From: Deltaproteobacteria bacterium
GTDB taxonomy: Bacteria; Desulfobacterota_D; UBA1144; Nemesobacterales; CSP1-2
Assembly (NCBI GenBank): GCA_052390235.1
Contig: JBQTHB010000003.1
Coordinates: forward strand, 224,001-288,000
DNA: 64,000 nucleotides
Direction: 5' to 3'
Positions 30,264 through 58,732 of the stretch are shown here, one piece after another. The stretch's first letter is position 1; the number at the start of each line of letters is the position of its first letter. The translations under genes were made by a program, and so were the position numbers. The notes below the pieces were generated by a model that saw only the letters and a program-made list of their open reading frames with translations, was not told where the DNA came from and searched no databases.

Positions 30264-31322
30264 TCAGCAGATTCTAGGCAGTTGTTCCCCCGTGAGCATA
30301 TCCACAACCCTCGTGCCGCCGATTCTCGTCTTCATGAACACTATACCCGGATGCTCAGCCGTAATCTCTCCGATGACGACGGCGTCTGTGGCTAATGGGT
30401 TTTCCCTCATTTTTTTGACTATCGAGTCGGCGGCGTCTCTTGCGACTATTGCGATGAGTTTCCCCTCGTTCGCCACATATAGCGGGTCTAGCCCCAGGGT
30501 CTCGCAAGCCCCTTTGACCTCTCTGGTTATCGGGATTTTGCTCTCTTCGATGCGAATCCCCACGCGGGAGCTTGCGGCAAGTTCATTCAGCGCGCTGGCA
30601 ACGCCCCCGCGAGTAGGGTCGCGCATACAGCGGATTTCCAAGCTCACCGAGAGCATATCCGAGACTAGAGCGGCAAGAGAAGCCGTATCGCTCAGTATCT
30701 TGGTCTCGAATTCAAGCCCCTCCCTTACGGACATAATAGCTATCCCGTGAATCCCTATAGCGCCGCTTAGGATGACTCTATCTCCGGGCTTTGCCGCATC
30801 TGCCGAGATTCTCAGCTCTCTTTCAATAACGCCTAGCCCCGAGGTGTTGATGAAAATTTTATCAGCCTTGCCCCTGTCCACGACTTTAGTGTCACCCGTA
30901 ACGAGTTGAACCCCAGCAATATCTGCCGCAGTCTTCATCGAGACGACAATGCGCCATAAATCCTCCATCGGGAATCCCTCCTCCAGAATAAACCCCGCGC
31001 TGATGTAAAGGGGCTTCGCGCCGCTTACGGCAAGGTCGTTTACAGTGCCGTTCACGGCAAGCTCGCCTATGTCCCCTCCGGGGAAGAATATCGGGCTTAC
31101 AACGTAGGAGTCGGTAGTAAAGGCAAGGCGCGCGCCGTTTATCTCCAATGAGGCGGCGTCGTTAAGGGGAGAGAGAAGCGGGTTGCCGAATTGCGGGAGA
31201 AATATCTTTTTCATGAGGTCGGCTGAGAGCTTTCCGCCGCTTCCGTGCCCGAGCAGGACTTTTTTGTAGTTGGTCATCGGCATGGGACAACTCAGGGTGA
31301 ATAATTCGGCTTTCTCGGACAT
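30264..31322 (-). CDS. hypE: Hydrogenase maturation carbamoyl dehydratase
   Basis: GHGSGG, TTDSYVV, GTVNDL, MRDPTRGG, C-terminal PRIC. Confidence 0.96.
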   Translation of the reverse strand: MSEKAELFTLSCPMPMTNYKKVLLGHGSGGKLSADLMKKIFLPQFGNPLLSPLNDAASLEINGARLAFTTDSYVVSPIFFPGGDIGELAVNGTVNDLAVSGAKPLYISAGFILEEGFPMEDLWRIVVSMKTAADIAGVQLVTGDTKVVDRGKADKIFINTSGLGVIERELRISADAAKPGDRVILSGAIGIHGIAIMSVREGLEFETKILSDTASLAALVSDMLSVSLEIRCMRDPTRGGVASALNELAASSRVGIRIEESKIPITREVKGACETLGLDPLYVANEGKLIAIVARDAADSIVKKMRENPLATDAVVIGEITAEHPGIVFMKTRIGGTRVVDMLTGEQLPRIC

Positions 31323-31452
31323 CGCGAGGCCTCCTGGAAATGTAGTTTGGTTTAAGACTCCGTATGAGAGTGAACCCGGCTAAACGCCGCTCCCGAGGGG
31401 ATTTCGTCAATTTCTGGATTCTCGCCCAAGAAGCCACATTCGGCGTGGACGG

Positions 31453-32043
31453 CTAAATAACGTCTTCTTCGCCCAATATGACGTGAATCATATCCCACAT
31501 TATGTGAAGCAGAGTCTCCTGAGTTTCCTGAATGCGGTGGATGCTATAAGTGGGAACAACGAAGCAGTGATCCGAAAGCTGAGGCATCTGGCCCCCGTCC
31601 TTTCCGGCAAAAGCGATAGTTATCATGCCCATCTCGCGCGCCGCCTTGAGTCCGCGTATTACGTTTGCAGATTTGCCGCTCGTGCTGATGCCCAGAGCCA
31701 TATCCCCCGCCCTCCCAAGGAGCTTTATCTGGTCGTGGAATATCATGGAGAAATCCTTATCGTTGCCGATGGCGGTCATGGTAGCCACGTCGTTCGTAAG
31801 GGCGATGGCGGGGAAAGAGCGGCGCTTTTCTATTATAGGATGCAGGAACTCTACGGCTACGTGCTGGGCATCGCAGGCACTCCCGCCGTTGCCCATGACT
31901 AGGAGTTTCCCCCCCTTCGTGAACGCCTCAGCCATCGCCTCGGCGAGACGGAGAATATTATCGGCGTTGTCCTCGAAGAATTTCTCCTTCTGCTCCATGC
32001 TGTCGCGGCACTTGCGGATAATGGTCTCTCTTAGCGGATTCAT
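31453..32043 (-). CDS. GmhA-like SIS-domain protein within the hydrogenase maturation cluster
   Basis: GNGGSACDAQH, TAIGND, ISTSGKS, HRIQE; start moved to ATG 32043. Confidence 0.85.
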   Translation of the reverse strand: MNPLRETIIRKCRDSMEQKEKFFEDNADNILRLAEAMAEAFTKGGKLLVMGNGGSACDAQHVAVEFLHPIIEKRRSFPAIALTNDVATMTAIGNDKDFSMIFHDQIKLLGRAGDMALGISTSGKSANVIRGLKAAREMGMITIAFAGKDGGQMPQLSDHCFVVPTYSIHRIQETQETLLHIMWDMIHVILGEEDVI

Positions 32044-32185
32044 TTTCAGTGGGCTACCTCTTAGATTGATATTGTAGCAGTCAAACGCCGGGTTCGATAG
32101 AGCGCGCGTCGAAGAACCCACTCCCCTCTGGCAGGCTGAGGATGCGCCCCCCCTCATCACGCATCCCGCGCATCTGGCTATTCTA

Positions 32186-33292
32186 TTACCCCGCCGCCGC
32201 CGATTTCAAATATCTGCCGTAGTTATAATACGCGGCACAGGCCCCCTCAGACGAGACCATTGTCGCGCCAAGCGGACGCTCCGGCGTGCATTCTTTGCCG
32301 AAAGCCGGGCATTCGTGCGGTTTTTTCAGTCCCCTCAGCACCTGCCCGCTTATGCAAGCCGAAGACTCCTCAGCCTCGATGTAGTCAACGCCAAAAATCC
32401 TCTCGGCGTCGTGTTCGCGGTATTCATATTTGAGCTTATAACCACTCTTGGGAATTATGCCTATGCCGCGCCATTTTCTGTCGGCAATATCGAAAACATC
32501 GAGAATAATTTTTTGAGCCGGCAGGTTTCCCTCCCTCTTCACTGCCCTTGCGTACTGGTTTTGGACGTCGTGCCTGCCCTCTTCGAGCTGCTTTACCGTG
32601 AGATAAACCCCCTCAAGGAGATCTAGCGGCTCAAACCCCGTAACGACTATCGGCACTCTGTAGCGCGCAGAGATTGGCTCGTATTCCCACCACCCCATGA
32701 CGGCGCACACATGGCCCGCTCCAAGGAATCCCTGCACTTGGTTATGCGGGGACTGCAAGATAGAAGCCATCGAAGGGGGAACGAGAACGTGCGAGACGAG
32801 TATGGAGAAATTATTTATTCCGAGCCGCTTTGCCTGCCATACGGACATAGCGTTTGCAGGGGCGGTTGTCTCGAAGCCGACGGCGAAAAATACGACTTTT
32901 TTCTGAGGGTTGTTCTGGGCGATTTTCAGCGCGTCAAGCGGCGAATAGACGATTCTCACGTCGCCCCCCTCGGATTTAACGGCAAAGAGGTCTCTTTTCG
33001 AGCCGGGCACTCGGAGCATATCCCCGAAGGAGGTAAAAATCACATCCGGGCTTGCGGCAATCTCAAGCGCCTTGTCAATCATCTCAAGCGGGGTTACGCA
33101 CACAGGACACCCCGGCCCATGCACGAGCGTAACGTCTTTTGGCAGAAGCTCGTCAATTCCATATTTCACTATCGTGTGAGTCTGTCCGCCGCAGACCTCC
33201 ATTATGACCCATGGATGCTTCGTCGCTCCGTGAATCCTGTCCACCATGCGCGCCGCCGCATCAGGGTCCCTGTATTCATCCAAATATTTCAT
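32186..33292 (-). CDS. hypD: Hydrogenase maturation protein HypD
   Basis: [38 protein letters not shown]. Confidence 0.96.
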
Positions 33293-33399: not shown

Positions 33400-33663
33400 C
33401 TAGTTGCCCTCGTCCTCATCATCTCCGGCAAGCTCTCCAAGCTCGTTCATTGCATCGAGAAACTCAAAAACCTTTCGAGCCTCCTCCTCGTCAACTTTGC
33501 TAAGCGCGAACCCCACGTGAACTAGGGCGTAATCCCCAAGCTCGAGCTCCGGCACGTACTCAAAGCACGCCTTTCTCGACACGCCGTCAAAGTCAACCTT
33601 CCCCATTTTGATGCCATTTTCATAGAAAATCTCAACTACTCTTCCGGGTATCGCCAAGCACAT
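33400..33663 (-). CDS. hypC: Hydrogenase chaperone HypC
   Basis: MCLAIPG, LVHVGFAL. Confidence 0.96.
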   Translation of the reverse strand: MCLAIPGRVVEIFYENGIKMGKVDFDGVSRKACFEYVPELELGDYALVHVGFALSKVDEEEARKVFEFLDAMNELGELAGDDEDEGN

Positions 33664-33763: not shown

Positions 33764-34438
33764 TTAGAACCTAAATCCCGTCCTGCCGGTAAACGTATAG
33801 AAACTCCCGTTCGGACCGCTAATGAAGTTATACCGCGCCTCAGCTCCCACGAACACCTTTGGAGTGATATTCATATCCACGCCGATTCCCGTGTGAAGCC
33901 CAAGATTCACGTCTCCCTGTCCTGCGGGAAACCCCCTGCGGTCAAGCTCAGCGGGCAGGGGTGAAATTCCGCCTGCGAAATCATCTCCCAAAGCCGCGCC
34001 GTCCGTAGAGCTAAGCAGCACGTTGAACCCCGGCGCAACAACTATGTAGGGCTGAAAGAAATTCGAGAAGAGAAACTTATACTTCAGCCCCGCTATCACC
34101 GAGAGATTCGTCAAATCAACCTCGGTCGAGGTAACCGCCCCCGCAGGCGCGCCAACGACAACCAGCGGAGAGACCGCCGAAACCTCGTCGTCCGTCCTAG
34201 CAAGCCCGATGTGGACAATTCCCATCAGGATGCCGGGGCCTATTGGCACAAGGGGCAGCCCCACCTCGCCTGCAATGTAGAATCCCGCGCCCGTGTCAAA
34301 GGGCCCAATCTGAGCGCCAAGGGCGAATGCAAACTCTCCGCCAATCCCCTGAGCCTTCGATGTGTCAGCCGTATAAAGCAAACCCGCCGCTACAAAGATT
34401 AAAATCGCTAAAACCCTCCACAAATTAACTTTAGTCAT
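33764..34438 (-). CDS. Small outer-membrane beta-barrel protein (OmpW/OmpA-TM-like)
   Basis: Signal peptide, amphipathic strands (AGLKYKF, FQPYI, GIGVDMNI, FVGAEARY), C-terminal GFRF with terminal Phe. Confidence 0.7.
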   Translation of the reverse strand: MTKVNLWRVLAILIFVAAGLLYTADTSKAQGIGGEFAFALGAQIGPFDTGAGFYIAGEVGLPLVPIGPGILMGIVHIGLARTDDEVSAVSPLVVVGAPAGAVTSTEVDLTNLSVIAGLKYKFLFSNFFQPYIVVAPGFNVLLSSTDGAALGDDFAGGISPLPAELDRRGFPAGQGDVNLGLHTGIGVDMNITPKVFVGAEARYNFISGPNGSFYTFTGRTGFRF

Positions 34439-34510: not shown

Positions 34511-36901
34511 CTAAGTAGCGGCTACTTCTCGGGAATTTTTATATTCATCTCCCTTCACCTCCCCCGGAACGCCGGTTTTTATCTGTTTCCCTCCTCTCAC
34601 TTCTCCGCGCGCCAAAACGGCCGACGCCACGGCAACCTGCCCAAGAGCAATGCCGCCGTCGTTGGCAGGCACTCTCTGATGGATATAAGGTCTAAAACCT
34701 CCCTCGCACAGAATTCGGCAAACCCTCTCCGTGAGATAGCGGTTCTGAAATACGCCTCCCGACAAAACCACTCTCTCCAGATTAAATAATCGAGCCGCAT
34801 CAACGACAATCCGGGCGAGGGTGTTGTGAAACTTCGCCGACACCTGCGAGGCAGCCGCCCCCCTGCGCGCATCGTCCAAAATGGCGAGAACCGTGGGCAT
34901 CCAATCCACAATTGCGGGACTTGCCGCTTTGCGCGCAATCTCAAATGGATACGAGCGCTCAACGCCATCTGCCGCCGCGTATTCAAGCTCCGCCGCCGCC
35001 TGCCCCTCGAATCCTGCCCGAAGCCTCAATCCGGCTAAAGCTGAAACTGCGTCGAAAATCCTCCCCGCGCTCGATGTAACTGGAGAATTCACTCCCCGCT
35101 CAAGCATCCTCATAAACACTGCAAGCTCCTCGCGGCTGAAAGAGCGAATAAGCGCAATGTCTGACATCCCCAGAACACCCTCGCCGAAAATCTCGAAAAG
35201 CATCCCCAAAGCGGCGCGCCTCGGCTCTCGCACTGCCATCTCGCCCCCCGGAAGCCTAAAAGTCCTGAAATGCGCCAGACGCTCAAAGGACTCGTAATCC
35301 GCCCTGAGAAACTCCCCTCCCCACACCGTGCCGTCCCCTCCGTATCCCGTGCCATCCCAGCAGATTCCCAGAACCTCCCCCTCCAGTTCATTCTCAGCCA
35401 TGCAGGCGGCAACGTGGGCGTGATGGTGCTGAACATGGACGAGGGGAATATCCAGAGTCTTGGCGTATTTCGTCGAGAGGTAATCCGGGTGCATATCGCA
35501 GGCTACGGCTTCAGGCTCGAAATCATATAATCTCCTGAAATCCTCAATTACCCGCAGGAAAGCCGTATAAGCATCTTCGGTTTCAAGGTCTCCTATGTGC
35601 TGGCTAATGAAAACATCCCCGCCCGCAGAGATTGCAACCGTGTTTTTCAGATGCGCCCCAACGGCTAGGATTTTAGCCATGGATTCACCGGCGGGACGGC
35701 GAATAGAAACTGGAAGCGGCGCATAACCTCTGGAGCGGCGCATAACCTGCCCAACTCCAGCGACCACCCTGACAATGGAGTCATCGGCGCGTCTCACAAT
35801 GGCGCGGTCGTGAACCAAGAGCAGGTCAGGGATGCCCTGAAGCCTGATAGGGGCCTCGCGCTCGTCCGAAACTATAGGCTCGTCCGAGAGGTTCGCGCTT
35901 GTAGCCACGACGGGAAAGCCAAGCTCCCGCATCAATATTATGTGAAGGGGCGAATAGGGGAGCATCACTCCTAAGTAGGGATTCCGAGGGGCGACATTTG
36001 GAGCGATGCTGGCGGCGGCGCAGGCGCGCCTGCTGAGAATAACTATCGGGCTTTCGGCAGAGAGCAGCATCATCTGCTCTGCCGCCGACACCTCGCAGGC
36101 ATCCCTAACGGATTCCATCGAGGGGAACATCAGGGCAAACGGCTTTTCCTCTCGGCGTTTTCTCTCCCGAAGCCTAGAGACAGCCCTCTCATCCCCTGCG
36201 TTCACCATGAGATGAAATCCGCCGATTCCCTTAACGGCTATAATTTTCCCTCGCCTCAGGGCGTGTGATGCTTGGATAACAGCGTCCCTCTGTTCGGCAA
36301 TGACCTCGCCTTCGGCAGTCCAAAGCTCAACCCTAGGGCCACAGGCCGGACAGGCCACAGGCTCGGCGTGAAAGCGTCTTTCGAGAGGGTTTTCATATTC
36401 GCGGCGGCAGTCCGCGCACATCGGAAATGATTTCATCGAGGTATTTTGTCTATCGTAGGGAATCTCCTCAATGATTGTAAAGCGGGGGCCGCAGTTCGTG
36501 CAGTTCGTAAAGGGGTAATCAAACCTCCTGTCGGCGGGGTCTAATATCTCAGCCCTGCATTCGGCGCACGTCGCTATATCGGGCAGGATGAGGGCGGTTT
36601 TAGCCCCCGAATCCGCGCTCAGGCGTATCTCGAAACCGTTGTATCCGGCGGCGTCAAGAAACGAAGACTCAAGGCTCTGGATTATCGCGCGCGGAGGCTT
36701 CTGGGAGTTTAGGGCAATCAAAAAGGAATCGAGCATGGGCTTTGCCCCCTCGACCTCGATAAAAACCCCCTGAGAGGAGTTTACCACCCAGCCCGAAAGC
36801 TCCATGCGCGTTGCCAAACGATAGACAAAGGGTCTGAATCCGACCCCCTGCACCGCGCCCCTTACGACGACTTTAAGACGCATGACCGTGGCATCTGGCA
36901 T
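34511..36901 (-). CDS. hypF: Carbamoyltransferase HypF
   Basis: GAVQGVGFRPFVY, two CxxC-x18-CxxC zinc fingers, KGIGGFHL, QHHHAH, NDGGIALGQ. Confidence 0.96.
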   Translation of the reverse strand: MPDATVMRLKVVVRGAVQGVGFRPFVYRLATRMELSGWVVNSSQGVFIEVEGAKPMLDSFLIALNSQKPPRAIIQSLESSFLDAAGYNGFEIRLSADSGAKTALILPDIATCAECRAEILDPADRRFDYPFTNCTNCGPRFTIIEEIPYDRQNTSMKSFPMCADCRREYENPLERRFHAEPVACPACGPRVELWTAEGEVIAEQRDAVIQASHALRRGKIIAVKGIGGFHLMVNAGDERAVSRLRERKRREEKPFALMFPSMESVRDACEVSAAEQMMLLSAESPIVILSRRACAAASIAPNVAPRNPYLGVMLPYSPLHIILMRELGFPVVATSANLSDEPIVSDEREAPIRLQGIPDLLLVHDRAIVRRADDSIVRVVAGVGQVMRRSRGYAPLPVSIRRPAGESMAKILAVGAHLKNTVAISAGGDVFISQHIGDLETEDAYTAFLRVIEDFRRLYDFEPEAVACDMHPDYLSTKYAKTLDIPLVHVQHHHAHVAACMAENELEGEVLGICWDGTGYGGDGTVWGGEFLRADYESFERLAHFRTFRLPGGEMAVREPRRAALGMLFEIFGEGVLGMSDIALIRSFSREELAVFMRMLERGVNSPVTSSAGRIFDAVSALAGLRLRAGFEGQAAAELEYAAADGVERSYPFEIARKAASPAIVDWMPTVLAILDDARRGAAASQVSAKFHNTLARIVVDAARLFNLERVVLSGGVFQNRYLTERVCRILCEGGFRPYIHQRVPANDGGIALGQVAVASAVLARGEVRGGKQIKTGVPGEVKGDEYKNSREVAAT

Positions 36902-36952
36902 GGGGATTCTCCTATCGCCGGCGCACAAATTAACTGGACAAGGCAGCGCGCC

Positions 36953-37507
36953 TCAGCCGCCCTCTGCTGCGCCGAAAATATCGAATGTGAATTTTAGCTC
37001 GTCTTTAACCTTGACCGCCCCCATTGCGGCGGAGAAGGGTTTAATCCGATAATTACTCTGTTTGAGCATAAACTCTCCGCTTGTGCGAAAGCCCTCAGGC
37101 AGAACTCTCATCTGTGTATCAACGCGCTCTTTATTCGTAACGCCGTGCAGAGATAGCTCCCCGTCAATAATCACCCGATACCAGCCATTGGCAATTTTTG
37201 TGGCGGTTACGCCGACGCTCTGGAAAACGACCTCAGGGTATCTCGACGTTTCAATCACCTGAGTGCGCATACTAGATTCAATGTCCTTGCGGTCTTTCTC
37301 GCTCATGTTGTCGGCAAGCGAGAGAGAATCGGTCATTATCACGATGCGTATGGAGGACGCTTCGGGCGCGTCGGCAGAGAAACCAGCCTCGCCCGTGAAT
37401 TCCGCTATTTTGAATATCGGATTATGGCCGAACGCAGAGAGCATCCCCCCTGCGAAAGCCTGCACTGTGAAGCGGCTCCGTTTAGCGTCCAATTTATATT
37501 GCGGCAT
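36953..37507 (-). CDS. YceI-like protein
   Basis: Beta-barrel pattern, IDGELSLHGVT, KVKDELKFTF; no signal peptide. Confidence 0.75.
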   Translation of the reverse strand: MPQYKLDAKRSRFTVQAFAGGMLSAFGHNPIFKIAEFTGEAGFSADAPEASSIRIVIMTDSLSLADNMSEKDRKDIESSMRTQVIETSRYPEVVFQSVGVTATKIANGWYRVIIDGELSLHGVTNKERVDTQMRVLPEGFRTSGEFMLKQSNYRIKPFSAAMGAVKVKDELKFTFDIFGAAEGG

Positions 37508-37663: not shown

Positions 37664-38119
37664 TCAATCATCGTGGTCGTGTGGGTGGGGATGATGGCGG
37701 TGGTGCGGGTCATCGGCGTGATGCTCCCGAATATGCTCTTCTAATATCCCCTCGGCGTCAACGGCAAGCCGCCTCAGCACAACGCCGCTTGCAAGCTCCA
37801 CCTCATCCACCGATACTTCATCGCCCGAAATCAGCTCTAAGTCAGCCGACCCGCATTCGGCGCACACAAACGGAGGACTCGCTATCTCGGACTTTGACGA
37901 GCAAGACCGGCACGCGAAAACCGCCGGTAGTTCTTCAATTTCAATTGCCGCCTCCGCCGCCGGCGTATCAGCCGAGACGAGCTCGAAAGAAAACTTAAGG
38001 CTATCCGGCACGACCATCTGCATTCTGCCTATATGAAGCCGGATTTTAGCCACTTTCTGCTCGCCGGCAGCGTCCAAAACCACGTCCAATATACCTTCGG
38101 CTAGTCCCATCTCGTGCAT
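37664..38119 (-). CDS. hypA: Nickel metallochaperone HypA with His-rich C-terminal tail
   Basis: MHE N-terminus, CRSC and CAEC motifs, tail EEHIREHHADDPHHRHHPHPHDHDD. Confidence 0.92.
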   Translation of the reverse strand: MHEMGLAEGILDVVLDAAGEQKVAKIRLHIGRMQMVVPDSLKFSFELVSADTPAAEAAIEIEELPAVFACRSCSSKSEIASPPFVCAECGSADLELISGDEVSVDEVELASGVVLRRLAVDAEGILEEHIREHHADDPHHRHHPHPHDHDD

Positions 38120-38212: not shown

Positions 38213-38488
38213 TTACATGGATTTTGCTTTCACATAGCGCTCTATATCGGGGAGCAGCCCCGCAAGCCCCGCGCCCATAGGGTCGTTGAGGAAACTCGCA
38301 ATATTCATCCCCGGCGGAAGCATATCGCCGAGCTTTTCCATGAGCGATTGGCGCATCTCAGGATTCGCTATCATGCGCCGCACGTCAGGGTGTCCCATTA
38401 AAAGCCCGAACCCCAGAGCCACTAACGCAAGCCCCCCAGCCACAAAGAGCATATCCTTCATATCGCTGGGAATATCGTAATTCTGCAT
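38213..38488 (-). CDS. Small membrane protein of the hhy cluster
   Basis: One TM helix; C-terminal PDIERY...M resembles small proteins of group 1h clusters; AGGAGG RBS. Confidence 0.65.
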   Translation of the reverse strand: MQNYDIPSDMKDMLFVAGGLALVALGFGLLMGHPDVRRMIANPEMRQSLMEKLGDMLPPGMNIASFLNDPMGAGLAGLLPDIERYVKAKSM

Positions 38489-38503: not shown

Positions 38504-39043
38504 CTAATTGGATTTTAACTCCTCTGCTTCCCTGTTATTATTGAGGATTTCTCCGACCAGCGACTCGACCAATTTCACGGCTTCGTCAACGGCAGAGCGA
38601 ACCGGCTCGCTAAGCCCGATATATCCCTCATCATCGTCCGAGCCAAAAGTAAAAGGCTCGCATCCGACAACTAAAATCCTCTTACACCCCGCCCCGCCCA
38701 TCGTCTTTACAAGCTGAAGCACCCTCGCCGGATTCATTCCATGGGTCTCAAGGCTCACCCCGCCTCCTTCGCCCCCGCCTTCTAGCTGAATCTCATCCAT
38801 ATCCGGCTCGACGACATAGAGTGTGCCGGGGACATCCCCGCGCGGCATCGCATCAACCAATATCGCGGCATCGTAAGGGTCCATAAGCGCGTACGCCAAA
38901 TCAAAACCCCTTATGCCGTAATCCGCCACTCGAACCCCTTCGGGCATAGCGCGCCCGGCGAGCCTTCCCGCCACCTCGACTCCGAACCCATCGTCGCCAA
39001 GGAAAATATTTCCTATTCCGGCAATTAGTATTCGCTCGGACAT
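38504..39043 (-). CDS. Hydrogenase maturation protease (HupD/HyaD family)
   Basis: AGIGNIFLGDDGFG, LVDA, THGM, VGCEP. Confidence 0.9.
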   Translation of the reverse strand: MSERILIAGIGNIFLGDDGFGVEVAGRLAGRAMPEGVRVADYGIRGFDLAYALMDPYDAAILVDAMPRGDVPGTLYVVEPDMDEIQLEGGGEGGGVSLETHGMNPARVLQLVKTMGGAGCKRILVVGCEPFTFGSDDDEGYIGLSEPVRSAVDEAVKLVESLVGEILNNNREAEELKSN

Positions 39044-44635: not shown

Positions 44636-44730
44636 TTTCGTTTCACCTCCGAAAAATTTTACTACTTTGTCGAACATATCCGCCGCCATAGTTCCCTCCC
44701 CGCCGCAAAGTAATTTTCATAACCCCTCCG

Positions 44731-49589: not shown

Positions 49590-49648
49590 CGCTACTCCCT
49601 CCCTGAATTTTGTATTTTCTGAGCTAGACTCATTCCCGAATCGCGCAT

Positions 49649-50046: not shown

Positions 50047-51054
50047 TTACGCATAGACAGGTTCGTCTTGTGCCGCCTCCTTCTGCGAGCGCACCCGGCT
50101 GAGGGCGGCAACCGGTGTGGCAAACGGCACGGACGTCCCGTTGTAGGCGCGAATCACATGGTAAGTGAGTAGGAGCTGCGCTAGGGCAAGCGGGTGGCTG
50201 TGGCGCGCCTCGACGCCGTCCTGATAAGAGCCAAGCTGCCGACCGGACAACGGACGCGGCTCGGGGAAATGAGCCAAAACGGCCTCTTCGAGTATCGTCG
50301 CACTCTCAGGGGTTACGCTTCCGTCAATCTCAAGAAAATCCGCCGGACGACCGCCGTCGCGCCCAAGCCTAAGGCGCATCCCAGGGGCGCGGGAATCATC
50401 AAACAAGTAACTCAGGTCAGGATGGGGTATCGTGGGGCGTAGCACAAAGCCGACGTTAAGGTCTCCATTCGCCCGCTCGGCGCTGATGCCTTCTGGGGGA
50501 TAGAACTTCATCACAATATCGGACGATTCCCTCTGGGGGCGGATGAAATCCTGCGAGTCGCCCTCGCGCTTGTCGAGTTCCGCCAGCACCTGCTCGACCG
50601 TGTAGCCGCGCTTTGTGGTGTCGCGCTTGACCTTCCATAGCCGCCGCAGGTCTTCAGGGGGGTCTAAATACACTTTTACGTCGTAGAATCGGCGCATCAC
50701 CGGGGAGTGGAAGCCAAGCAGTCCCTCGACGATGACAAACTCCTTGGGCTGAACGTACTCAGGGCGGATAATAGAGCCTGTGGAGTGGTCATAGACGGGT
50801 TTGAGAATCGGTTGCCCGTAGTGCAGTCGCTCCAGATGAAGCTCCAGAATGTCGAGGTAGTTGCAGTCCGGGTGGAGGGCCGTGATGCCGAGTTTCGCCC
50901 GCTCACGCCGGTCATATTTATGGTAGTCGTCGGTGCAGACGTGGGTAACGCGCTCCTCGCCAAGGAGGTTAACCAGCCCCCTCGTAATTGTGGTTTTGCC
51001 GGACGCGCTGTCGCCTACAATGCCAAGTATTATCGGTCGCTGCGGTGTGGTCAT
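50047..51054 (-). CDS. prk: Phosphoribulokinase
   Basis: GDSASGKTT, DDYH, KPVYDH, EGL, KVKRD...RGY; within the cbb operon. Confidence 0.92.
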   Translation of the reverse strand: MTTPQRPIILGIVGDSASGKTTITRGLVNLLGEERVTHVCTDDYHKYDRRERAKLGITALHPDCNYLDILELHLERLHYGQPILKPVYDHSTGSIIRPEYVQPKEFVIVEGLLGFHSPVMRRFYDVKVYLDPPEDLRRLWKVKRDTTKRGYTVEQVLAELDKREGDSQDFIRPQRESSDIVMKFYPPEGISAERANGDLNVGFVLRPTIPHPDLSYLFDDSRAPGMRLRLGRDGGRPADFLEIDGSVTPESATILEEAVLAHFPEPRPLSGRQLGSYQDGVEARHSHPLALAQLLLTYHVIRAYNGTSVPFATPVAALSRVRSQKEAAQDEPVYA

Positions 51055-51084: not shown

Positions 51085-52032
51085 TTAATTATCCTCCGCC
51101 GACGCGTCAATTCCCCCTCGAAAAACACGGCTTTGTCGTATGTCGGCGGCGTCAATCCGCGCGAGTTCTCCTTTAGTAATCCGCCCCCCTCGGCTCACGA
51201 GGCGGCTCGCGTGCCGGAGCCTGAAGCGGTCAATTGCGTTGCGCACGCTTCGCCCGTTGGCAAAGTGGGGCTGACTAATCCTCAGCTGCAGATACTCCCG
51301 AAACGCCTCCCTCGCCTCGGCGTCGAAGCAGTACATCTGGCGCGCGAGGAGTAGCTCTCCAATGGCAGTCAGCTCGTCCATCGAGTAATCGGGAAAATCA
51401 ATGTGATGGGCGATGCGGGAGCGAAATCCTGGGTTATATTGAAAAAACGTGTCCATTCTATCTCTGTATCCGGCGAGGATTACAACTAAATCGTCGCGGC
51501 GGTTTTCCATCACCTGAAGGAGCATCTCAATGGCCTCCTGCCCGTAGTCGCGCTCGTTTTCAGGGCGGTACAGATAATACGCCTCGTCAATAAACAACAG
51601 CCCTCCGGCGGCTTTTTTGAGCGCCTCTTTGGTCTTCGGCGCAGTGTGTCCCACGTACTGCCCCACGAGGTCGTCGCGCGTTGCCACAACCAAGCGGTCG
51701 TGGCGCAGATACCCAAGGCTATGGAGAATTTTCGCCATCCTGAAGGCAACCGAGGTCTTTCCCGTGCCGGGGCGCCCTGTGAAGCTCATGTGGAGCGTCG
51801 GCGGGTCGGCGGCAAGCCCCGCCCTCTTGCGCAGGCTATCCACCAAGAGCAGAGCCGCAATCTCCCGAATGCGGGATTTCACAGGGGCAAGCCCGACTAG
51901 CTCGCGGTCTAGGTCGCCGAGAATATCGCCGATATTGGACGCGCGCCTAGTCTCGTCTATATCCAGATACAGCGTCTCGTTTTCTTCGGGCATTTCCAGC
52001 TCCGATACCGATTCCGCGTTTGTGCTTTTCAT
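51085..52032 (-). CDS. cbbX: Red-type Rubisco activase CbbX
   Basis: LVGLAPVKSRIREIAALL, GRPGTGKT, LVGQYVGHTAPKT, FIDEAYYLYRPENERDYGQE. Confidence 0.96.
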   Translation of the reverse strand: MKSTNAESVSELEMPEENETLYLDIDETRRASNIGDILGDLDRELVGLAPVKSRIREIAALLLVDSLRKRAGLAADPPTLHMSFTGRPGTGKTSVAFRMAKILHSLGYLRHDRLVVATRDDLVGQYVGHTAPKTKEALKKAAGGLLFIDEAYYLYRPENERDYGQEAIEMLLQVMENRRDDLVVILAGYRDRMDTFFQYNPGFRSRIAHHIDFPDYSMDELTAIGELLLARQMYCFDAEAREAFREYLQLRISQPHFANGRSVRNAIDRFRLRHASRLVSRGGRITKGELARIDAADIRQSRVFRGGIDASAEDN

Positions 52033-52122: not shown

Positions 52123-52129
52123 TATTGCA

Positions 52130-52552
52130 TTAATCCCCATAACGCCGCCCCGAGGGATTCACCGCAGCGTAGGAGCGTATCGTGTATCTGATTTGACGGT
52201 CTGCAAACTCCGTCCTCTCAACGTGAAATCCCGGCTCATCCTTCGGGCGGTTTACGATGAAACTCATCGCTGTCGTCTGCCTGCCGAGAGAGCGGTCGTA
52301 GCCGCTTACCTTTATATAGCGATTCGGGAAAGCCTCTCGACACTCGGCGATGGCGCGCATTACGGCGGCGTGGTCATTCATATCGAACATGGGCAGTCCC
52401 CACATCTCCCAGTAGGTGTTGCGCGGGTGAGGGTCGTCTGTATGCTCAATTGAAACTGGCCAGCCGTTTTTGAGGCAGTAGCGCACTTGATAGGCTATCT
52501 CCTCGTCGGAGAAATCGGGCAGATATGAAAATGTGCCTTGAGTGATTCTCAT
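52130..52552 (-). CDS. cbbS: Rubisco small subunit (red type)
   Basis: [32 protein letters not shown], red-type C-terminal extension. Confidence 0.96.
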
Positions 52553-52633
52553 CGAAAGCCTCCTTAATCTATATGATTTACGCCGCAAGATTCCGAGCAG
52601 GCATCGTCTACACGCTCATCTGCGCATCCCGAA

Positions 52634-54109
<1,476 letters not shown>

Positions 54110-54307: not shown

Positions 54308-55690
54308 TTATTCATTGTCTAAGCCTCGCGCGAATAAATGCCGGATGGGGGCTTTAATCGCCTCGTCCATCCCATCCTGAAAGTTGATAAAATCCCCGAC
54401 AGCGAGCAGGCTATAGAGGGTGTCGAGGGGGAGTTTTTGCGTCAATGGGGAGTCTAAATCCGGCAGTTTCCCCTTGCGCAACTCCCGCCACTCGGATTCG
54501 GTCGGGGCGTAGAAAAAATCCCCGAACCCTGCCTCGTCGAAACGCTTGAAGAGATTGTCGCCGTCGGTAACCTCGGCGGACTGTCGAAGTTCCGTGAGAA
54601 ACTCCACAAATTCTGGCTCGACTCTGTACAGACGCTCGATTTTCTCCATTGCCAATTTCTCCCCTCCCAATTTTTCCAGGACTCTATCGGAAACCCCAAG
54701 CCTGTCTGAATAATCCGCATCGAGGCGATTTTTTATATCCCCCGGACCCATATCGCTCTGAGCGAAAAATTCCTTCAGCGCCGGGTAAGGCACGGTATAA
54801 ACGTCGCACCCAGCGGTCAGGGGTATCGTCTGCCATCTCCTCACGCTCGCCGCCATATTCAGGGTTTTCACGCCTAGGGTATTTCTAATACGCCTGATGT
54901 GCCTCTGAGTTTTGAGAGTCGTGTGTTCGCCGAGGAGTTCAGAGTCCATGCCCTGATTTAGCCTGCCGAGAAATATATTCGCGCGGTGAACATCAGCCAG
55001 CAGGGCGGCGGCAACGACTTGCCGCGCCGAGAAAGTGGCGGTGAAATTCACTGCAATTCCCTGCCTCTCAAGGCCGCGCGCAATGAGTAGCGAGTGCGGA
55101 TAATCGGGCGTGAAAGCCACTTTGACAAAGCAGTTCGGCACGGCTTGGGCGAGACACCAGCCGGCGCGCCTCGATGCCTCCGGGTCTTTGGCAAGAGCCG
55201 TGTGAAGCTCAAGGCTTATACGCCAAGTCCTATGGGCGGCGTAGGCGTTTAGCGCTTCGAGTCCGAGCCGTCCATTGATGATGCTATAAATCAGCGCCGC
55301 CGCCTCGTCAACGGTTAAATCCGGCTTCTCCTCTAGGAGCGCGCGTGTCCATGAGACGATATTATCCCCATCGCCGCCTCCAAAAAATCTGCCGAGTACT
55401 TTCATGATTAGGGGCTGATTCGTGGTATTGCCGTCTATCTCGGTATAGAGCTTCACGCCGTCGTCATCTTCAGTGTGGACTGCGAGGTCGTGGAGTTCCT
55501 CTCGGTCGGCGGTGTCGGCGTAAATGTGAGCCGTGCCGCAGTCCCTGAGGGCGGAGAGGAGCGGATGGGAGACAAACCCTACGGGCTTTGCGGGCGGCAA
55601 TTTTGCCTGAGCCGCTTTTATCAGCTTCACTAATCGTCTGTCCAATGCCATCGCATGGGTTTTGGGTTTCAGCGTCGCTATCGCACTCAT
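54308..55690 (-). CDS. Transaldolase-family protein
   Basis: YADTA, NTTNQPL, FVKV (Schiff-base Lys), VNFTATFSARQ, IFLGRL, AASVR; start taken at ATG 55690 (GGGAG RBS). Confidence 0.8.
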   Translation of the reverse strand: MSAIATLKPKTHAMALDRRLVKLIKAAQAKLPPAKPVGFVSHPLLSALRDCGTAHIYADTADREELHDLAVHTEDDDGVKLYTEIDGNTTNQPLIMKVLGRFFGGGDGDNIVSWTRALLEEKPDLTVDEAAALIYSIINGRLGLEALNAYAAHRTWRISLELHTALAKDPEASRRAGWCLAQAVPNCFVKVAFTPDYPHSLLIARGLERQGIAVNFTATFSARQVVAAALLADVHRANIFLGRLNQGMDSELLGEHTTLKTQRHIRRIRNTLGVKTLNMAASVRRWQTIPLTAGCDVYTVPYPALKEFFAQSDMGPGDIKNRLDADYSDRLGVSDRVLEKLGGEKLAMEKIERLYRVEPEFVEFLTELRQSAEVTDGDNLFKRFDEAGFGDFFYAPTESEWRELRKGKLPDLDSPLTQKLPLDTLYSLLAVGDFINFQDGMDEAIKAPIRHLFARGLDNE

Positions 55691-55733
55691 AAGTCTATCT
55701 CCCGATTCAGATGCCGTTTCAATTATATTAGGG

Positions 55734-55748
55734 GCAACTGCCGTGCCA
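55734..55748 (-). promoter_or_regulatory. Sigma-54 (-24/-12) promoter of the tal-cbb operon
   Basis: Minus strand TGGCACGGCAGTTGC matches TGGCACG-N4-TTGC; about 44 bp upstream of ATG 55690. Confidence 0.8.
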
Positions 55749-55778
55749 AGCGTCGTGGGCAACGCTAAATTCGCAGTA

Positions 55779-55801: not shown

Positions 55802-55844
55802 CGATTGAGACAGAATTCTCTGCCAGATGGAGTTGCCGCACCGC

Positions 55845-55885: not shown

Positions 55886-55958
55886 ATTTGACCCCTTCCA
55901 GTGGAGAGGCAAGAGAGGTGAGGAATACTGCCTCTGTTGGACTTCATCCTGCGGCTTT

Positions 55959-56137
55959 CGACAAAGCTTGGAATAAACTACGTCGAAGGGAGGCGAGTGA
56001 AAACAAGGGGCAAGATTCCTCTCTGCGTTCGGAATGACAGAGGGGAGAGGCTTGGATTGGAAATGACCCTTCATACCTAGACTCCGCTCAGGGCGCGGAT
56101 GAAATGGATTCCCGCTCAGGAGACTGCGGGAATGACA
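55959..56137. repeat. Composite palindromic repeat cluster
   Basis: GTCGAAGG...AGATTCCTCTCTGCGTTCGGAATGACAGAGG (also near 60600) and CTCCGCTCAGGG...GATGAAATGGATTCCCGCTC...GACTGCGGGAATGACA (also near 19300). Confidence 0.75.
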
Positions 56138-56236
56138 CCGTGGCAATATCACGGAGGGGCAGAGAAATACCGTTGACATTTCGGTATTGTCCATGCGACA
56201 ATTGAGAATAATCTATATGTCAAGGAGGGAGTCCCC

Positions 56237-57289
56237 ATGTTAAACAACCCATATTACTCGCAGGATGTCCACGGGCCCTTTGAGCTTTACGACATCGGCA
56301 ACCACACGCTCGAAGAAGGCGGCACAATACGGGGCTGCAAGCTCGCCCACGCGACCTTCGGCGCTCTGAACGCCGCAAAAGATAACGCCATCGTCGTTCC
56401 AACGTGGTACTCAGGCACGAGCAAAATCATGGAGCAGGTCTATATCGGAGCGAATCACGCCCTAAACCCAGAGAAGTATTTCATCATCGTCATAAACCAA
56501 ATCGGCAACGGGCTATCGAGTTCGCCGCATAACACGCCTTTTCCGGGCGGCATGGGCAATTTCCCCCATGTTAGAGTCGGCGACGACGTGCGCGCGCAAC
56601 ACAAGCTGGTTACGGAGAAATACGGCATCTCTAGCCTTGCCCTCGTCGTAGGAGGCTCGATGGGCGCTCAGCAGACTTATGAATGGGCAGTGAGATTCCC
56701 CGATATGGTAAAACGCGCCGCCCCGATAGCCGGAACTGCGCAGAACACAGAACACGATTTTCTCTATACGCAGACGCTGATGGACGCAATCACATCAGAC
56801 CCCGGATACAGGAACGGGTTTTATTCATGCAACACCGAGGTTCACGACGGATTAAGACGGCACGCCAAGATGTGGGCAGTGCTGGGTTGGAGCACCGAAT
56901 TTTTCCAGCAGAGGCGATATGCGGATTTAGGCTTCTCCTCGATGGACGATTTTCTCAACAGCTTTATGTTCTACTACTTCGGCTCGATGGATCCGAATAA
57001 TCTGCTGAGAATGGCGTGGAAGTGGCAGAGGGGGGACGTCGCCCGCAACACCGGAGGCGACCTCAAGGCGGCGCTCGGACGCATCAAGGCGAAGGTCTTT
57101 ACGATGCCGATTGACGAGGATATGTTCTTCCCGCCGAGGGACTGCGAAGCGGAGCAGAAGATGATTCCGAACAGCGAATTTCACGTGATAAAGAGCATTG
57201 ACGGGCATTTGGCGCTATTCGGCACTGACCCGAATTATATAGGGCAGGTTGACGCGTGCCTCAATAAACTGCTGGCGACTGCGGTTTAA
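56237..57289 (+). CDS. MekB-like acetyl-ester hydrolase (homoserine acetyltransferase-like alpha/beta hydrolase)
   Basis: HGPFEL, PTWYSGTSK, NQIGNGLSSS, GGSMGAQQ nucleophile, AWKWQRGDV, SIDGH; resembles Pseudomonas veronii MekB as recalled. Confidence 0.8.
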   Translation: MLNNPYYSQDVHGPFELYDIGNHTLEEGGTIRGCKLAHATFGALNAAKDNAIVVPTWYSGTSKIMEQVYIGANHALNPEKYFIIVINQIGNGLSSSPHNTPFPGGMGNFPHVRVGDDVRAQHKLVTEKYGISSLALVVGGSMGAQQTYEWAVRFPDMVKRAAPIAGTAQNTEHDFLYTQTLMDAITSDPGYRNGFYSCNTEVHDGLRRHAKMWAVLGWSTEFFQQRRYADLGFSSMDDFLNSFMFYYFGSMDPNNLLRMAWKWQRGDVARNTGGDLKAALGRIKAKVFTMPIDEDMFFPPRDCEAEQKMIPNSEFHVIKSIDGHLALFGTDPNYIGQVDACLNKLLATAV

Positions 57290-57305
57290 ATTTGGCAATT
57301 ACAAG

Positions 57306-57344
57306 CGGGCGCGGAAGGGCAGGGTCGGCGCTCTTCCGCGCCCG
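57306..57344. terminator. GC-rich hairpin between convergent genes
   Basis: CGGGCGCGGAAG ... CTTCCGCGCCCG 12-bp inverted repeat. Confidence 0.65.
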
Positions 57345-57385
57345 ATACGCCCAATGGCACATACACGATTTGGGACACCCCACAA

Positions 57386-58732
57386 TTAACTCCCGGACTT
57401 ATAATCGCGGGCTGAGAACTTGTGCTTAGCCATCAAGCGGTGAAACGTGCGGCGCGGCACTTTGGCAATTGCCGCCGCCTTGGTGATATTCCCCCTCGAT
57501 TCAATGAGATAATTTAGAATCTCCTGCCTCTCGTGGCGGTCAATGAAGCGGCCCTTATCCTCCAGAAATCCCCGTCCCGTCTCGCCGGCATCTATCGCCT
57601 GTACGTGGAACGGCAGATGCTCCGGCTCGATGGCGGAGGACACCGTCAGCACAACGGCCCTTTCTAGCACGTTTTCAAGCTCTCTGAGATTTCCGGGCCA
57701 TGAGTAGCCACGGAGATGATACATAGCCGCCGGGGATATTGCCTCGACCATCTTATTGACCTTAGCCCTAGCTTTGTCGAGAAAATGCACGGCGAGCCGG
57801 GGGACGTCCTCGATTCTCTCCCGTAGCGGGGGGAGAGCGATGGTAAAGGTATTGATGCGGTAAAAGAGGTCTTCGCGGAATTTCCCCTCGCGGATGGCGT
57901 ATTCCAAGTCCCGATTGGTGGCGGCGATGACCCTTACTGATATTCTCTTTGTGCGAACCTCGCCCACAGGGCGTATTTCGCCGGTCTGAAGGGTTCTGAG
58001 GAGTTTCGCCTGAGTGTCGGGGGACATATCGCCGATTTCATCGAGGAAAACAGTTCCGCCGTCGGCTTTTTCAAATAGCCCGATTCTATCCGAAGATGCG
58101 CCTGTGAACGCGCCGCGCTTGTAGCCGAAAAGCTCGCTCTCCAGCAGTCCGGCGGATAGGGCCGTGCAGTTGATTGTTACAAGAGGGAAGTTGCTAAGCG
58201 CGCTTCGGCGGTGAATGGCTCTTGCGGCGAGTTCCTTGCCCGTGCCGCTTTCGCCGCGAATCAGCACCGTGGTCGGAGTCGGGGCTACTTTGGCTATAAG
58301 CTCGGCGACCTGCCTCATTTTTGGATTATCGCCGATGACAAATTCCGAATCCGAGTTTTGCTCAAGCTCTCTGAGGGCGAGGCGGTAGCGCTCTTTTAGG
58401 GTTTTCGCCTGAGCCTGAGCCTCGATGAATTCCCAGAAAAGGCGCGCCCCCACGGGACCTATAAGCTCGGTTCGCTCGGATTTGAGGGAGTAAATCTCCC
58501 TGCAGGCTTCGGGGTTTCCAGTGGCATCAATTATGAGGTCGGCGGGTACGGAGGGAATGAGTTGCCTGTAGTCGGTCGTAACGGGAATCCCGAGTCCCTT
58601 TGCGATGACAAAGCCCACTGCCCGCTCGTCAATATCGGCGACCCCGACGACCTTAACCGCCGGGGCTTGGAAAAATAGATTGAGAAGCGCCTGCCCGCCC
58701 CTGCCCGCTCCAACTATTATGACTCGCTTCAT
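57386..58732 (-). CDS. Sigma-54-dependent activator (bEBP) with N-terminal Rossmann-fold domain
   Basis: N-terminal VIIVGAGRGG...VGVADID; GESGTGKE, ELFGYKRGAFTGA, FLDEIG, FREDLFYR, WPGNLREL; C-terminal Fis-type HTH. Confidence 0.92.
   Translation of the reverse strand: MKRVIIVGAGRGGQALLNLFFQAPAVKVVGVADIDERAVGFVIAKGLGIPVTTDYRQLIPSVPADLIIDATGNPEACREIYSLKSERTELIGPVGARLFWEFIEAQAQAKTLKERYRLALRELEQNSDSEFVIGDNPKMRQVAELIAKVAPTPTTVLIRGESGTGKELAARAIHRRSALSNFPLVTINCTALSAGLLESELFGYKRGAFTGASSDRIGLFEKADGGTVFLDEIGDMSPDTQAKLLRTLQTGEIRPVGEVRTKRISVRVIAATNRDLEYAIREGKFREDLFYRINTFTIALPPLRERIEDVPRLAVHFLDKARAKVNKMVEAISPAAMYHLRGYSWPGNLRELENVLERAVVLTVSSAIEPEHLPFHVQAIDAGETGRGFLEDKGRFIDRHERQEILNYLIESRGNITKAAAIAKVPRRTFHRLMAKHKFSARDYKSGS

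Follow-up and report, generated by a model that had tools for sequence, protein, structure and literature searches.

A predicted two-module island joining group 1h hydrogenase and red-type Calvin-cycle genes in a member of Candidatus Dadabacteria

Introduction

The joint occurrence of a group 1h [NiFe]-hydrogenase and a form IE RuBisCO, known as "atmospheric chemosynthesis" or aerotrophy, has been described for Actinobacteriota, Candidatus Eremiobacterota and Candidatus Dormibacterota, and later for other phyla (PMC9561532 and PMC13755416, in the portions of both papers available to us). The second of these papers, on Aridivitia, adds a further lineage in which the group 1h enzyme and type IE RuBisCO co-occur; in its available portion Dadabacteria are cited for genome streamlining only. 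Here we describe a stretch of 64,000 nucleotides (GenBank assembly GCA_052390235.1, contig JBQTHB010000003.1, positions 224,001 to 288,000; "the window" in the following, with all coordinates counted from its first letter), in which positions 30264-60446 would constitute a laterally acquired island in the chromosome of a member of Candidatus Dadabacteria, its composition having largely drifted toward that of the host. The island places a hydrogenase module (module A, 30264-47308) next to a Calvin-Benson-Bassham (CBB) module (module B, 47583-58732). Judged by gene content alone, its host resembles the aerotrophy genomes in combining a group 1h hydrogenase and an aerobic respiratory chain with CbbX, Prk and a red-type RuBisCO outside form IC. 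It differs from them in that both gene sets are adjacent in one island, that a sigma-54 activator is found instead of the LysR-type CbbR, and that a CO dehydrogenase was not detected in the genome.

Among characterized enzymes, HofK/HofG of Ralstonia eutropha (PDB entry 5AA5; group 1h, formerly group 5, also called "actinobacterial-type", Hhy or AH) resembles the window hydrogenase in its full-length subunits, its adjacent genes and its lack of a twin-arginine translocation (Tat) signal. At 65-77 of 81 related loci the accessory set agrees with that of the window, with the NifU-type partner, the conserved hypothetical proteins, the protease and the hyp genes, whereas the host phylum, a MEDS-HxlR gene upstream, an outer-membrane protein (OMP) gene within the hyp genes, the absence of hypB and a long, His-rich HypA set the window apart. 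A second point of comparison is a Mycobacterium intracellulare plasmid (NZ_CP012886.2), a transferable element on which a [NiFe]-hydrogenase and hyp genes likewise have cbbL-cbbS-cbbX, prk and tkt as direct neighbours; its host is a monoderm actinobacterium, and LysR, AraC and two-component regulators are encoded in the region. Because the large subunit of the plasmid hydrogenase has 541 aa and only 24.6% identity to HhyL, it belongs to a different group, probably group 2a, a name we assign by deduction.

The plasmid deserves a remark of its own. In M. intracellulare subsp. chimaera, on this mobilizable element of 438 kb, positions 313.6-362 kb (our loci L116 and L118) hold an entire [NiFe]-hydrogenase cluster, hypABCDEF and a nickel transporter included, and around it tkt, rpe, fba, fbp, pgk and gap together with cbbLSX and two prk genes. 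Judged by its genes, this is a full hydrogen and CO2-fixation set on a transferable element.

The enzyme families of the island are all known ones, and many phyla have been proposed before to share the lifestyle. What would be new is the host phylum, a clean stepwise history of the island with comparators in one family, and a sigma-54 activator with a Rossmann domain that replaces CbbR.

Gene Content of the Island

The genome holding the window (G000) has 2.29 Mb on nine contigs, a completeness of 99.8% and a GC content of 0.53. Gene calls have been based on a listing of open reading frames (ORFs) and on Pfam and NCBIfam profile scans of the window proteins. The co-oriented run of about 25 kb, which had been proposed from the letters of the sequence, extends unbroken on the minus strand from 30264 to 55690 (25.4 kb), and every gene of the proposed set, tal-cbbL-cbbS-cbbX-prk-tkt, hhySL, accessory genes and hypAFCDE, is present at the position given for it. 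Going upward from 30264, the minus strand holds the hydrogenase maturation and accessory genes, then hhyL, hhyS and the MEDS-HxlR gene, and finally tkt-prk-cbbX-cbbS-cbbL-tal. The right limit had originally been set at 58732, where the sigma-54 activator gene indeed ends; comparison with G001, a genome of the same family and another genus, moves the edge of the island to orf432 (60446). Gene identities, host and island structure are held with high confidence. In the following list, fractions of loci refer to a scan of 83 loci, namely the 80 best hhyL loci from named genomes, the locus of G001 and two plasmid loci.

30264..31322, minus strand: hypE (TIGR02124, 473 bits; 75% identity to the G001 copy)
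31453..32160, minus strand: SIS-domain (GmhA-like) protein, typical of such hydrogenase clusters (PF13580; 50/83 loci)
32186..33292, minus strand: hypD (TIGR00075, 508 bits)
33400..33663, minus strand: hypC (PF01455, E 4.5e-25)
33764..34438, minus strand: outer-membrane beta-barrel (OMP) gene of the host family, between hypC and hypF (PF13505)
34511..36928, minus strand: hypF (TIGR00143, 834 bits)
36953..37507, minus strand: YceI-family protein, a common member of 1h clusters (PF04264; 49/83 loci)
37664..38119, minus strand: hypA, long (151 aa), with His-rich C-terminal tail (PF01155)
38213..38488, minus strand: small conserved ORF, 91 aa (37% identity to its positional counterpart in G001; DUF6893 matched weakly, below cut-off)
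38504..39043, minus strand: hydrogenase maturation endopeptidase (TIGR00072, 107.6 bits; 72/83 loci)
39043..40500, minus strand: conserved accessory protein, 485 aa (no Pfam or NCBIfam family matched; 70/83 loci)
40497..41216, minus strand: DUF6084 accessory protein (PF19562, E 1.8e-87; 73/83 loci)
41203..41853, minus strand: DUF5947 accessory protein (PF19372, E 2.4e-69; 77/83 loci)
41879..42781, minus strand: NifU-Rieske iron-sulfur protein (PF01106 and PF00355; 65/83 loci)
42881..44689, minus strand: HhyL, large subunit of the group 1h [NiFe]-hydrogenase (5AA5 chain C, 1129 bits; Ni-binding motifs)
44731..45786, minus strand: HhyS, small subunit, without Tat signal (5AA5 chain A, 645 bits)
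46307..47308, minus strand: MEDS-HxlR regulator upstream of hhyS (PF14417 and PF01638)
47583..49739, minus strand: tkt, fused transketolase, 718 aa (NF004559, 887 bits)
50047..51054, minus strand: prk, phosphoribulokinase (NF005655, 407 bits)
51085..52032, minus strand: cbbX, red-type RuBisCO activase (TIGR02880, 472 bits, cut-off 459)
52130..52588, minus strand: cbbS, RuBisCO small subunit (PF00101, E 5e-40)
52634..54085, minus strand: cbbL, red-type form I RuBisCO large subunit (tree, identities, active-site motifs)
54308..55690, minus strand: long transaldolase-family (tal-like) protein, 460 aa, start revised (PF00923)
55733..55748, minus strand: predicted sigma-54 (-24/-12) promoter, TGGCAC-N5-TTGC, upstream of tal-cbbLSX-prk-tkt (strict pattern match)
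56012..56139, no strand: two dispersed short repeats of the host inside the island (12 and 20 copies elsewhere in the genome)
56237..57289, plus strand: alpha/beta hydrolase, MetX-like, PRK07581 family (NF005757, 499 bits)
57386..58732, minus strand: sigma-54 enhancer-binding protein with N-terminal Rossmann (GxGxxG) domain (PF00158, E 3e-68)
58798..59118, minus strand: orf106, which travels with the island (43% identical homologue at the same place in G001)
59148..60446, minus strand: orf432, PD-(D/E)XK-like, right end of the island (found in 2/14 family genomes; G001 copy matches PF12705)
60592..60632, no strand: dispersed repeat of the host at the right border (12 copies elsewhere in the genome)

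The Group 1h Hydrogenase and Its Maturation Genes

The assignment of HhyL to group 1h, claimed at first sight of the sequence, agrees with the comparison against PDB structures, in which chain C of 5AA5 scores 1129 bits and the next structure 143. HhyS matches chain A over its full length (residues 4-347) with 645 bits, followed by 152 for the next structure, and a search of its sequence for a twin-arginine motif has found none. Measured against the nickel-binding patterns as we take them to be, both motifs of HhyL are intact (L1, RICGICGDNH at residue 83; L2, DPCLPCGVH at residue 573), the latter being followed by a C-terminal tail of 21 residues, the extension for the protease. The two genes are adjacent and 41 bases apart, which differs from group 1l with its separated subunit genes, and the accessory set differs from that of group 1m, whose CooC, TPR, BirA and DUF1059 genes have not been found in the window cluster by Pfam and NCBIfam scans (group features according to the available portion of PMC9561532; Ray et al., 2022). 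According to a search of the genome, this cluster is the only [NiFe]-hydrogenase of G000.

The NifU-Rieske protein, of the kind called HhyE-like, probably serves as an electron relay. The MEDS-HxlR gene occupies the same place in G001 and has been found at none of the 80 other hhyL loci, a distribution by which it is classed as a predicted lineage-specific regulator of the Dadabacterial hydrogenase. The OMP gene is absent from the G001 cluster and from all 83 other loci scanned, and homologues with 50-51% identity occur in two of 14 family genomes that have no hydrogenase.

All five hyp genes of the original prediction (hypA, F, C, D and E) are there, to which has to be added that hypB is missing: in the cluster as well as in the whole 99.8%-complete genome matches stay below the cut-off (best match 19.5 bits, cut-off 121.2). 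HypA, in turn, is 151 aa long and carries a C-terminal tail rich in His and Asp. A long HypA with no hypB nearby has also been observed in G001 (140 aa) and at a locus of Blastocatellia (L017, 142 aa), while at other loci HypA of 109-140 aa is usually accompanied by hypB. Nickel may hence be delivered by a HypB-independent route through the long, His-rich HypA, which makes this set a small but testable oddity in nickel delivery.

RuBisCO and the Calvin-Cycle Module

In the PDB comparison CbbL scores highest with 1BWV (794.6 bits) and 1BXN (761.6 bits), which we take to be form ID from Galdieria and form IC, respectively, and lower with green-type form IB entries (about 670 bits) and 1SVD (616 bits). 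Among plasmid-borne copies the best match is that of the M. intracellulare plasmid with 78.8% identity, and form IC copies on plasmids of Afipia, Nitrobacter, Sinorhizobium and Cupriavidus reach 68-74% and at most 74.3%. A careful tree of 53 rows, anchored by four form IC sequences and one form IE sequence from the Mycobacterium plasmid and built with no form ID sequences, gathers the four IC anchors in a clade (support 100/99) that leaves the query out, and joins the query and the single IE anchor on a shared branch (96/95), in line with the form IE-like character that had been proposed. Within this part of the tree the query sits in a subclade of 18 rows (100/96), whose named members (84-86% identity) are Anaerolineae, Candidatus Roseilinea, Gemmatimonadales, Longimicrobiales and Acidobacteria. 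The same picture was given by a quick tree with 96 rows. By these comparisons CbbL is classed as a red-type form I enzyme on the IE side of the tree.

The active-site motifs of RuBisCO are intact, and cbbS and cbbX are encoded downstream of cbbL. CbbX exceeds its equivalog cut-off, and Prk and Tkt exceed their curated NCBIfam cut-offs. The tal-like gene is present as proposed, with its start moved from TTG 55762 to ATG 55690: homologues of 444-459 aa and a sigma-54 promoter at 55748-55733 make the latter, which yields a protein of 460 aa, the most likely start. Its closest homologues are acidobacterial (68-70% identity), and Methylacidiphilum, a Calvin-cycle user, has one with 55%. From its occurrence, the long tal-like protein might mark a transaldolase variant of the Calvin cycle. 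Homologues of about 450 aa have also been seen in Candidatus Methylacidithermus, Methylomirabilota, Nitrospirales and Armatimonadota.

The other enzymes of the cycle are encoded outside the island, with rpe, class I fba, fbp, rpiB, tkt and tal-pgi in a cluster on contig C5 and pgk and gap on C6; a second fructose-1,6-bisphosphatase (FBPase) and a second rpe are also found in G000. Since Prk and RuBisCO of the island are joined by Pgk, Gap, aldolase, FBPases, Rpe, RpiB and Tkt of the host, the CBB cycle is complete on paper.

A Predicted Sigma-54 Switch of the Calvin-Cycle Genes

The sigma-54 activator had been taken as a marker of the host lineage, a view which has to be given up: the gene belongs to the imported CBB module, and its N-terminal domain is found in one of 120 species genomes of the phylum, the sample on which all phylum counts are based. 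It is 61-65% identical to activators beside cbbL in unrelated metagenome contigs. The host has an rpoN gene (385 bits), and a search with the strict pattern TGG[CT]A[CT]-N5-TTGC has given 30 matches in the 2.29-Mb genome and a single one in the window, TGGCACGGCAGTTGC at 55748-55733 on the minus strand, with a ribosome-binding site and the ATG at 55690 downstream of it. When up to two mismatches are allowed, the window holds 12 matches against 21.7 expected, and hence no enrichment. Upstream of cbbL in 20 related loci the strict pattern has not been found. A looser search (GG-N10-GC) has given a TGG-N9-TGC match, TGGAAC or a near variant and then TTGC, in five of six related loci, 198-274 nt upstream of cbbL, with TGG and ATTGC invariant in all five when aligned. 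We regard tal-cbbLSX-prk-tkt as a predicted sigma-54-dependent operon.

The first 92 or so residues of the activator contain a GxGxxG motif and a conserved acidic residue after strand 2. The model of this N-terminal domain has a mean pLDDT of 88.1, and its fold matches NAD-binding domains of acetaldehyde dehydrogenases, of Gfo/Idh/MocA enzymes and of PYCR1 (E about 1e-4, TM score about 0.6 on the query). From this model we infer that the activator would sense NAD(H) through its Rossmann domain. In common with the LysR-type CbbR it is a dedicated activator encoded directly upstream of the cbb genes; unlike CbbR, it belongs to the sigma-54 enhancer-binding proteins, carries a Rossmann domain as its sensor and is paired with a predicted -24/-12 promoter. 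By criteria of our own, the 59 metagenome cbbL loci that have 1.5 kb or more of sequence upstream divide into 29 with a LysR gene, five with an activator of the present type and 25 with neither. A literature search for sigma-54 or RpoN control of cbb genes, its hits judged by title, has found no paper on the subject. The activator offers a starting point, open to testing, for the question of how RuBisCO is turned on in some soil bacteria without CbbR.

Host and Distribution Across the Phylum

Members of Candidatus Dadabacteria, earlier called SBR1093, occur widely in the ocean, in sponges, in soils and below the surface, and have been read as degraders of microbial organic matter. That the host might be an unexpected lineage was suspected from the start, and it has been placed in the CSP1-2 family of this phylum. 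ObgE of the window has 75% identity to the protein from "Candidatus Dadabacteria bacterium CSP1-2", and the ObgE proteins of G004, G013 and G009, three genomes of the same family, are 100% identical to proteins which NCBI names Candidatus Dadabacteria (CSP1-2 included). The ObgE labels of other relatives read Thermodesulfobacteriota, Deltaproteobacteria and, in one case, Ignavibacteriales. A 16S gene is present in G000. The order also includes genomes of 1.2-1.6 Mb, which fit the approximately 1.22 Mb given for marine Dadabacteria in the available portion of Graham and Tully (PMC8115339).

As a side observation, the Ignavibacteriales label concerns G012 of the same family, whose ObgE is identical to a protein of an "Ignavibacteriales bacterium" at NCBI. 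Its sister genomes bear the label Dadabacteria, and an inconsistency of labelling or binning in the public record is the probable cause.

CbbL has been found in G000 alone among the 120 genomes, and so has the tal-like gene. HhyL occurs in two of them, G000 and G001, with 88% identity between the copies. The fused tkt of 718 aa is likewise confined to G000; 21 other genomes have split half-genes only, with 40-45% identity. In the available portion of PMC8115339, public Dadabacteria genomes are reported to lack carbon-fixation potential, with the exception of a claim of the 3-hydroxypropionate/4-hydroxybutyrate cycle for SBR1093, and Dadabacteria are absent from the eight phyla listed for form IE in the corresponding portion of PMC9561532. 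A search of the literature for Dadabacteria with RuBisCO, hydrogenase or the Calvin cycle has, in the parts of the papers accessible to us, found no assignment of RuBisCO or of a group 1h enzyme to this phylum. As far as these sources go, and with CbbL in this one genome of 120, the linkage does not appear to have been documented in the host lineage before. If the assignment is true, Dadabacteria join the lineages that have genes for hydrogen-fuelled CO2 fixation.

Integrity of the Contig

A gene set found in so few genomes of a phylum might owe its place to an assembly or binning artefact, in which a Dadabacterial contig had been fused with foreign ones bearing the hydrogenase and RuBisCO. 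The single occurrence of RuBisCO among 120 genomes would fit this explanation, and so would the composition of module B, which is mildly atypical (GC 0.576 against 0.53 for the genome; 4.7% of random chunks have as distant a tetranucleotide profile). Module A, by the same measure, does not stand out from the genome (equal distance in 37% of random chunks), and the GC contents at third codon positions (GC3) of the island match those of housekeeping genes. Both flanks are Dadabacterial, the epimerase being 78-83% identical to its counterparts in the family and cdsA being found in 14 of 14 family genomes with 48-58% identity. The hydrogenase island recurs in G001, an independent genome of the family, where orf432 and orf106 lie at the corresponding end. 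The block also contains the OMP gene of the host family and dispersed repeats of the host with up to 20 copies elsewhere. These repeats are 30-75 bases long and intergenic, with up to 34 copies elsewhere in the genome, and lie in the window at 19147-19364, 24805-24849, 56012-56139 and 60592-60632.

Contigs made by another assembler point in the same direction. In each of two runs (Logan contigs) the stretch is held by one piece of 36,720 bases with flat depth, which shows no differences over 28000-47900; by arithmetic it spans about 19.3-56.0 kb, with both ends on dispersed repeats, and so crosses the left junction as well as the junction between the hydrogenase and CBB genes. Of the two junctions at which a check had been advised, the left one at about 30.2 kb is thus bridged by an independent contig, the comparison itself covering 28.0-47.9 kb only, and for the right one at 56-61 kb the read-based comparison ended short. 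Two further runs, X3 and X4, gave fragmented contigs at a depth of 5-9, with one break (in X3) at 30110, close to the left border, and all four runs holding the stretch come from one study, possibly the source of the DNA. Both facts would suit an artefact. The breaks are read as low-depth fragmentation; the runs, being from one study and possibly from the source itself, test the assembly and not the sample. With no sign of a chimera in the flanks, the host elements inside the block, the related island of G001 or the independent contig, an artefact is considered highly improbable.

Borders and Comparators of the Island

Synteny in relatives, whose comparison had been recommended, has turned out to be informative: G001 carries the hydrogenase island without CBB genes, and G009, from the genus of G001, has a truncated orf432 only between Der and YbeY and no hydrogenase. 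On contig C11 of G001 the genes from hhyS through hypE are colinear with those of G000 at 37-88% identity, without the OMP gene, and the contig ends with YbeY-ScpB-ScpA. C11 and C42 begin with a shared stretch of exactly 55 nt within the MEDS-HxlR gene, and the joined order is Der, orf432, orf106, AraC, GFA, MEDS-HxlR, hhySL to hypE, then YbeY, ScpB and ScpA. The CBB module of G000 (47583-58732) thus fills the slot which AraC and GFA hold in G001. In G000, Der adjoins YbeY on contig C2, and the island lies on C3 between cdsA and the epimerase gene, with orf432 and orf106 at its end. Because the flanks in G000 and G001 differ, the island stands at different chromosomal sites with its internal order kept.

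No integrase and no adjacent tRNA gene have been found, the sole tRNA of the window being at 11836-11909. For the position in G000 the family genomes offer no simple empty site, since in them the genes of its left flank and those of its right flank belong to separate contigs. The patchy distribution, the differing sites, the relatives that lack the island and the foreign nearest relatives together indicate that the island was acquired laterally. One family offers genomes with no island, with a hydrogenase-only island and with a hydrogenase and CBB island, and hence a clean case in which a trait would have been assembled stepwise by gene transfer.

Origins of the Two Modules

The idea that both modules came as one block, put forward in the original prediction, holds insofar as they are joined in one island; their nearest relatives, however, are different. 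The HhyL tree, of 80 rows, places G000 as sister to G001 (support 93) inside a fully supported clade (100*) with three Gemmatimonadota; the hydrogenase of the Mycobacterium plasmid, which did not pass the filter for length and E-value, is left out of it as an outgroup. No CbbL has been found in the five genomes with the nearest HhyL, and no cbb genes within 10 kb of the best 80 hhyL loci. Among the best 80 metagenome cbbL loci, the closest (CbbL identity 86-88%) share the order activator-cbbLSX-prk, with identities of 61-65% for the activator, 66-73% for cbbS, 69-72% for cbbX and 67-70% for prk, and their other genes are unlike those of G000; these loci look acidobacterial. In the simplest and most likely reading two acquisitions were joined in the G000 lineage: the hydrogenase island would have entered the Dadabacterial family first, with Gemmatimonadota as its nearest relatives, and the CBB module would have been inserted later, in this lineage only, between orf106 and the MEDS regulator.

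Linked arrangements elsewhere give some room to a different history, in which the whole hydrogenase and CBB block came in one transfer from a linked donor and G001 later lost the CBB part. On the metagenome contig L130, one of these closest loci, activator-cbbLSX-prk is followed by hhyS-hhyL in the same orientation, on two others (L164 and L178) hydrogenase maturation genes lie upstream of cbbL, and on the Mycobacterium plasmid the cbb genes of form IE are linked with a different type of hydrogenase cluster. The HhyL of L130, however, nests in Terriglobia (99*), far from the clade of Dadabacteria and Gemmatimonadota. The absence of CbbL from all five genomes and of cbb genes from all 80 loci mentioned above also speaks against a linked donor, as does the slot in G001, which holds AraC and GFA and no CBB remnants, and the composition of module B, which is less host-adapted than that of module A. 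A single transfer is therefore judged unlikely, and similar linkages of hydrogenase and cbb genes did arise elsewhere, as on the Mycobacterium plasmid.

L130 shows an additional feature. Just upstream of the true hhyS-hhyL, positions 6535-10309 encode a lone second HhyS-like protein, followed by a histidine kinase with a PAS domain and a response regulator of LuxR type. Together they could form a unit that senses hydrogen or redox state by means of a paralogue of the small subunit.

Proposed Physiology

Taken as a whole, stepwise acquisition of the two-module island would have turned this member of Dadabacteria, a phylum that is elsewhere taken to be heterotrophic, into an aerobe with a facultative capacity for H2-driven CO2 fixation. 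Module A would provide a cytosolic, oxygen-tolerant group 1h hydrogenase with its relay protein, three conserved accessory proteins, a protease, HypA, HypC, HypD, HypE and HypF, and the MEDS-HxlR regulator, and would oxidise H2, with electrons passing through the quinone pool to the heme-copper oxidase that G000 encodes (COX1). Module B would hold tal-like, cbbL, cbbS, cbbX, prk and tkt behind the sigma-54 promoter with its dedicated activator, whose sensor would be a dinucleotide-binding Rossmann domain, and together with Pgk, Gap, class I aldolase, FBPases, Rpe and RpiB of the host would complete the CBB cycle. The electron route, the operon structure, the signal of the regulator, the affinity for H2 and actual autotrophy are all what we infer from gene content. 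We consider this whole account, acquired island, stepwise history and lifestyle, probable, with considerable doubt left; for H2-driven CO2 fixation in vivo, predicted from the genes, the chances appear slightly better than even. The boldest form of it is a portable "aerotrophy kit": a self-regulated Calvin cassette within a hydrogenase island would have made a member of a heterotrophic phylum an H2-driven CO2 fixer, with a previously undescribed cbb regulator, a sigma-54 activator with a truncated Rossmann domain, reading NAD(H) in the place of CbbR. In this full extent the proposal is doubtful.

Besides the shortfall of the read comparison at the right junction, the fragmented runs and their common study, several points count against the account given here. 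Module B is known from one genome, a metagenome-type assembly. The CbbL of G000 is sister to the activator-bearing clade with a weak support of 72/82, and the donor phyla are deduced from the labels that submitters gave to metagenome-assembled genomes. The CbbL tree has a single IE anchor, and since it holds no form ID sequence, the distinction from form ID is drawn from the PDB scores. With hypB missing, hydrogenase maturation might be impaired, unless the His-rich HypA compensates. The R. eutropha group 1h enzyme is reportedly not of high affinity. A form I CO dehydrogenase has not been found in G000, so that one lithotrophic donor has been identified (other donors were not surveyed), and the path of electrons to NAD(P)H for CO2 fixation, by reverse electron flow, is assumed.

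The same genes could serve a cell that is no autotroph. The island would then be real, with the hydrogenase supplying maintenance energy during starvation, persistence being a known role of group 1h enzymes, and with RuBisCO re-assimilating CO2 mixotrophically or acting as a sink for surplus reductant. The heterotrophic core of G000 has been kept in full (an ABC transporter for branched-chain amino acids, glucokinase, zwf, gnd), its genome of 2.29 Mb is small and a second lithotrophic donor has not been found in it, and a sensor resembling an NAD(H)-binding domain would suit redox balancing. G001 moreover has the hydrogenase without CBB genes, from which it follows that the hydrogenase is useful alone in this family. 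On the other hand, a complete set of cbbLS, cbbX, prk, an extra tkt and the tal-like gene has been retained beside the hydrogenase with its own regulator, the RuBisCO motifs noted above are intact and the remaining enzymes of the cycle are all present. We rate such a non-autotrophic use as possible, with an appreciable weight, yet on the less probable side, and keep facultative H2-driven CO2 fixation as the preferred reading.

Other Genes of the Window

The left 30 kb of the window hold housekeeping genes, among them prmA, mtnA, dksA, obgE, a gene of the RNase II family, ispE, msrAB, mazG and apgM. At 17717-19066 a hydrolase of the aminofutalosine-deaminase family is encoded, which suggests that menaquinone is made by the futalosine route.

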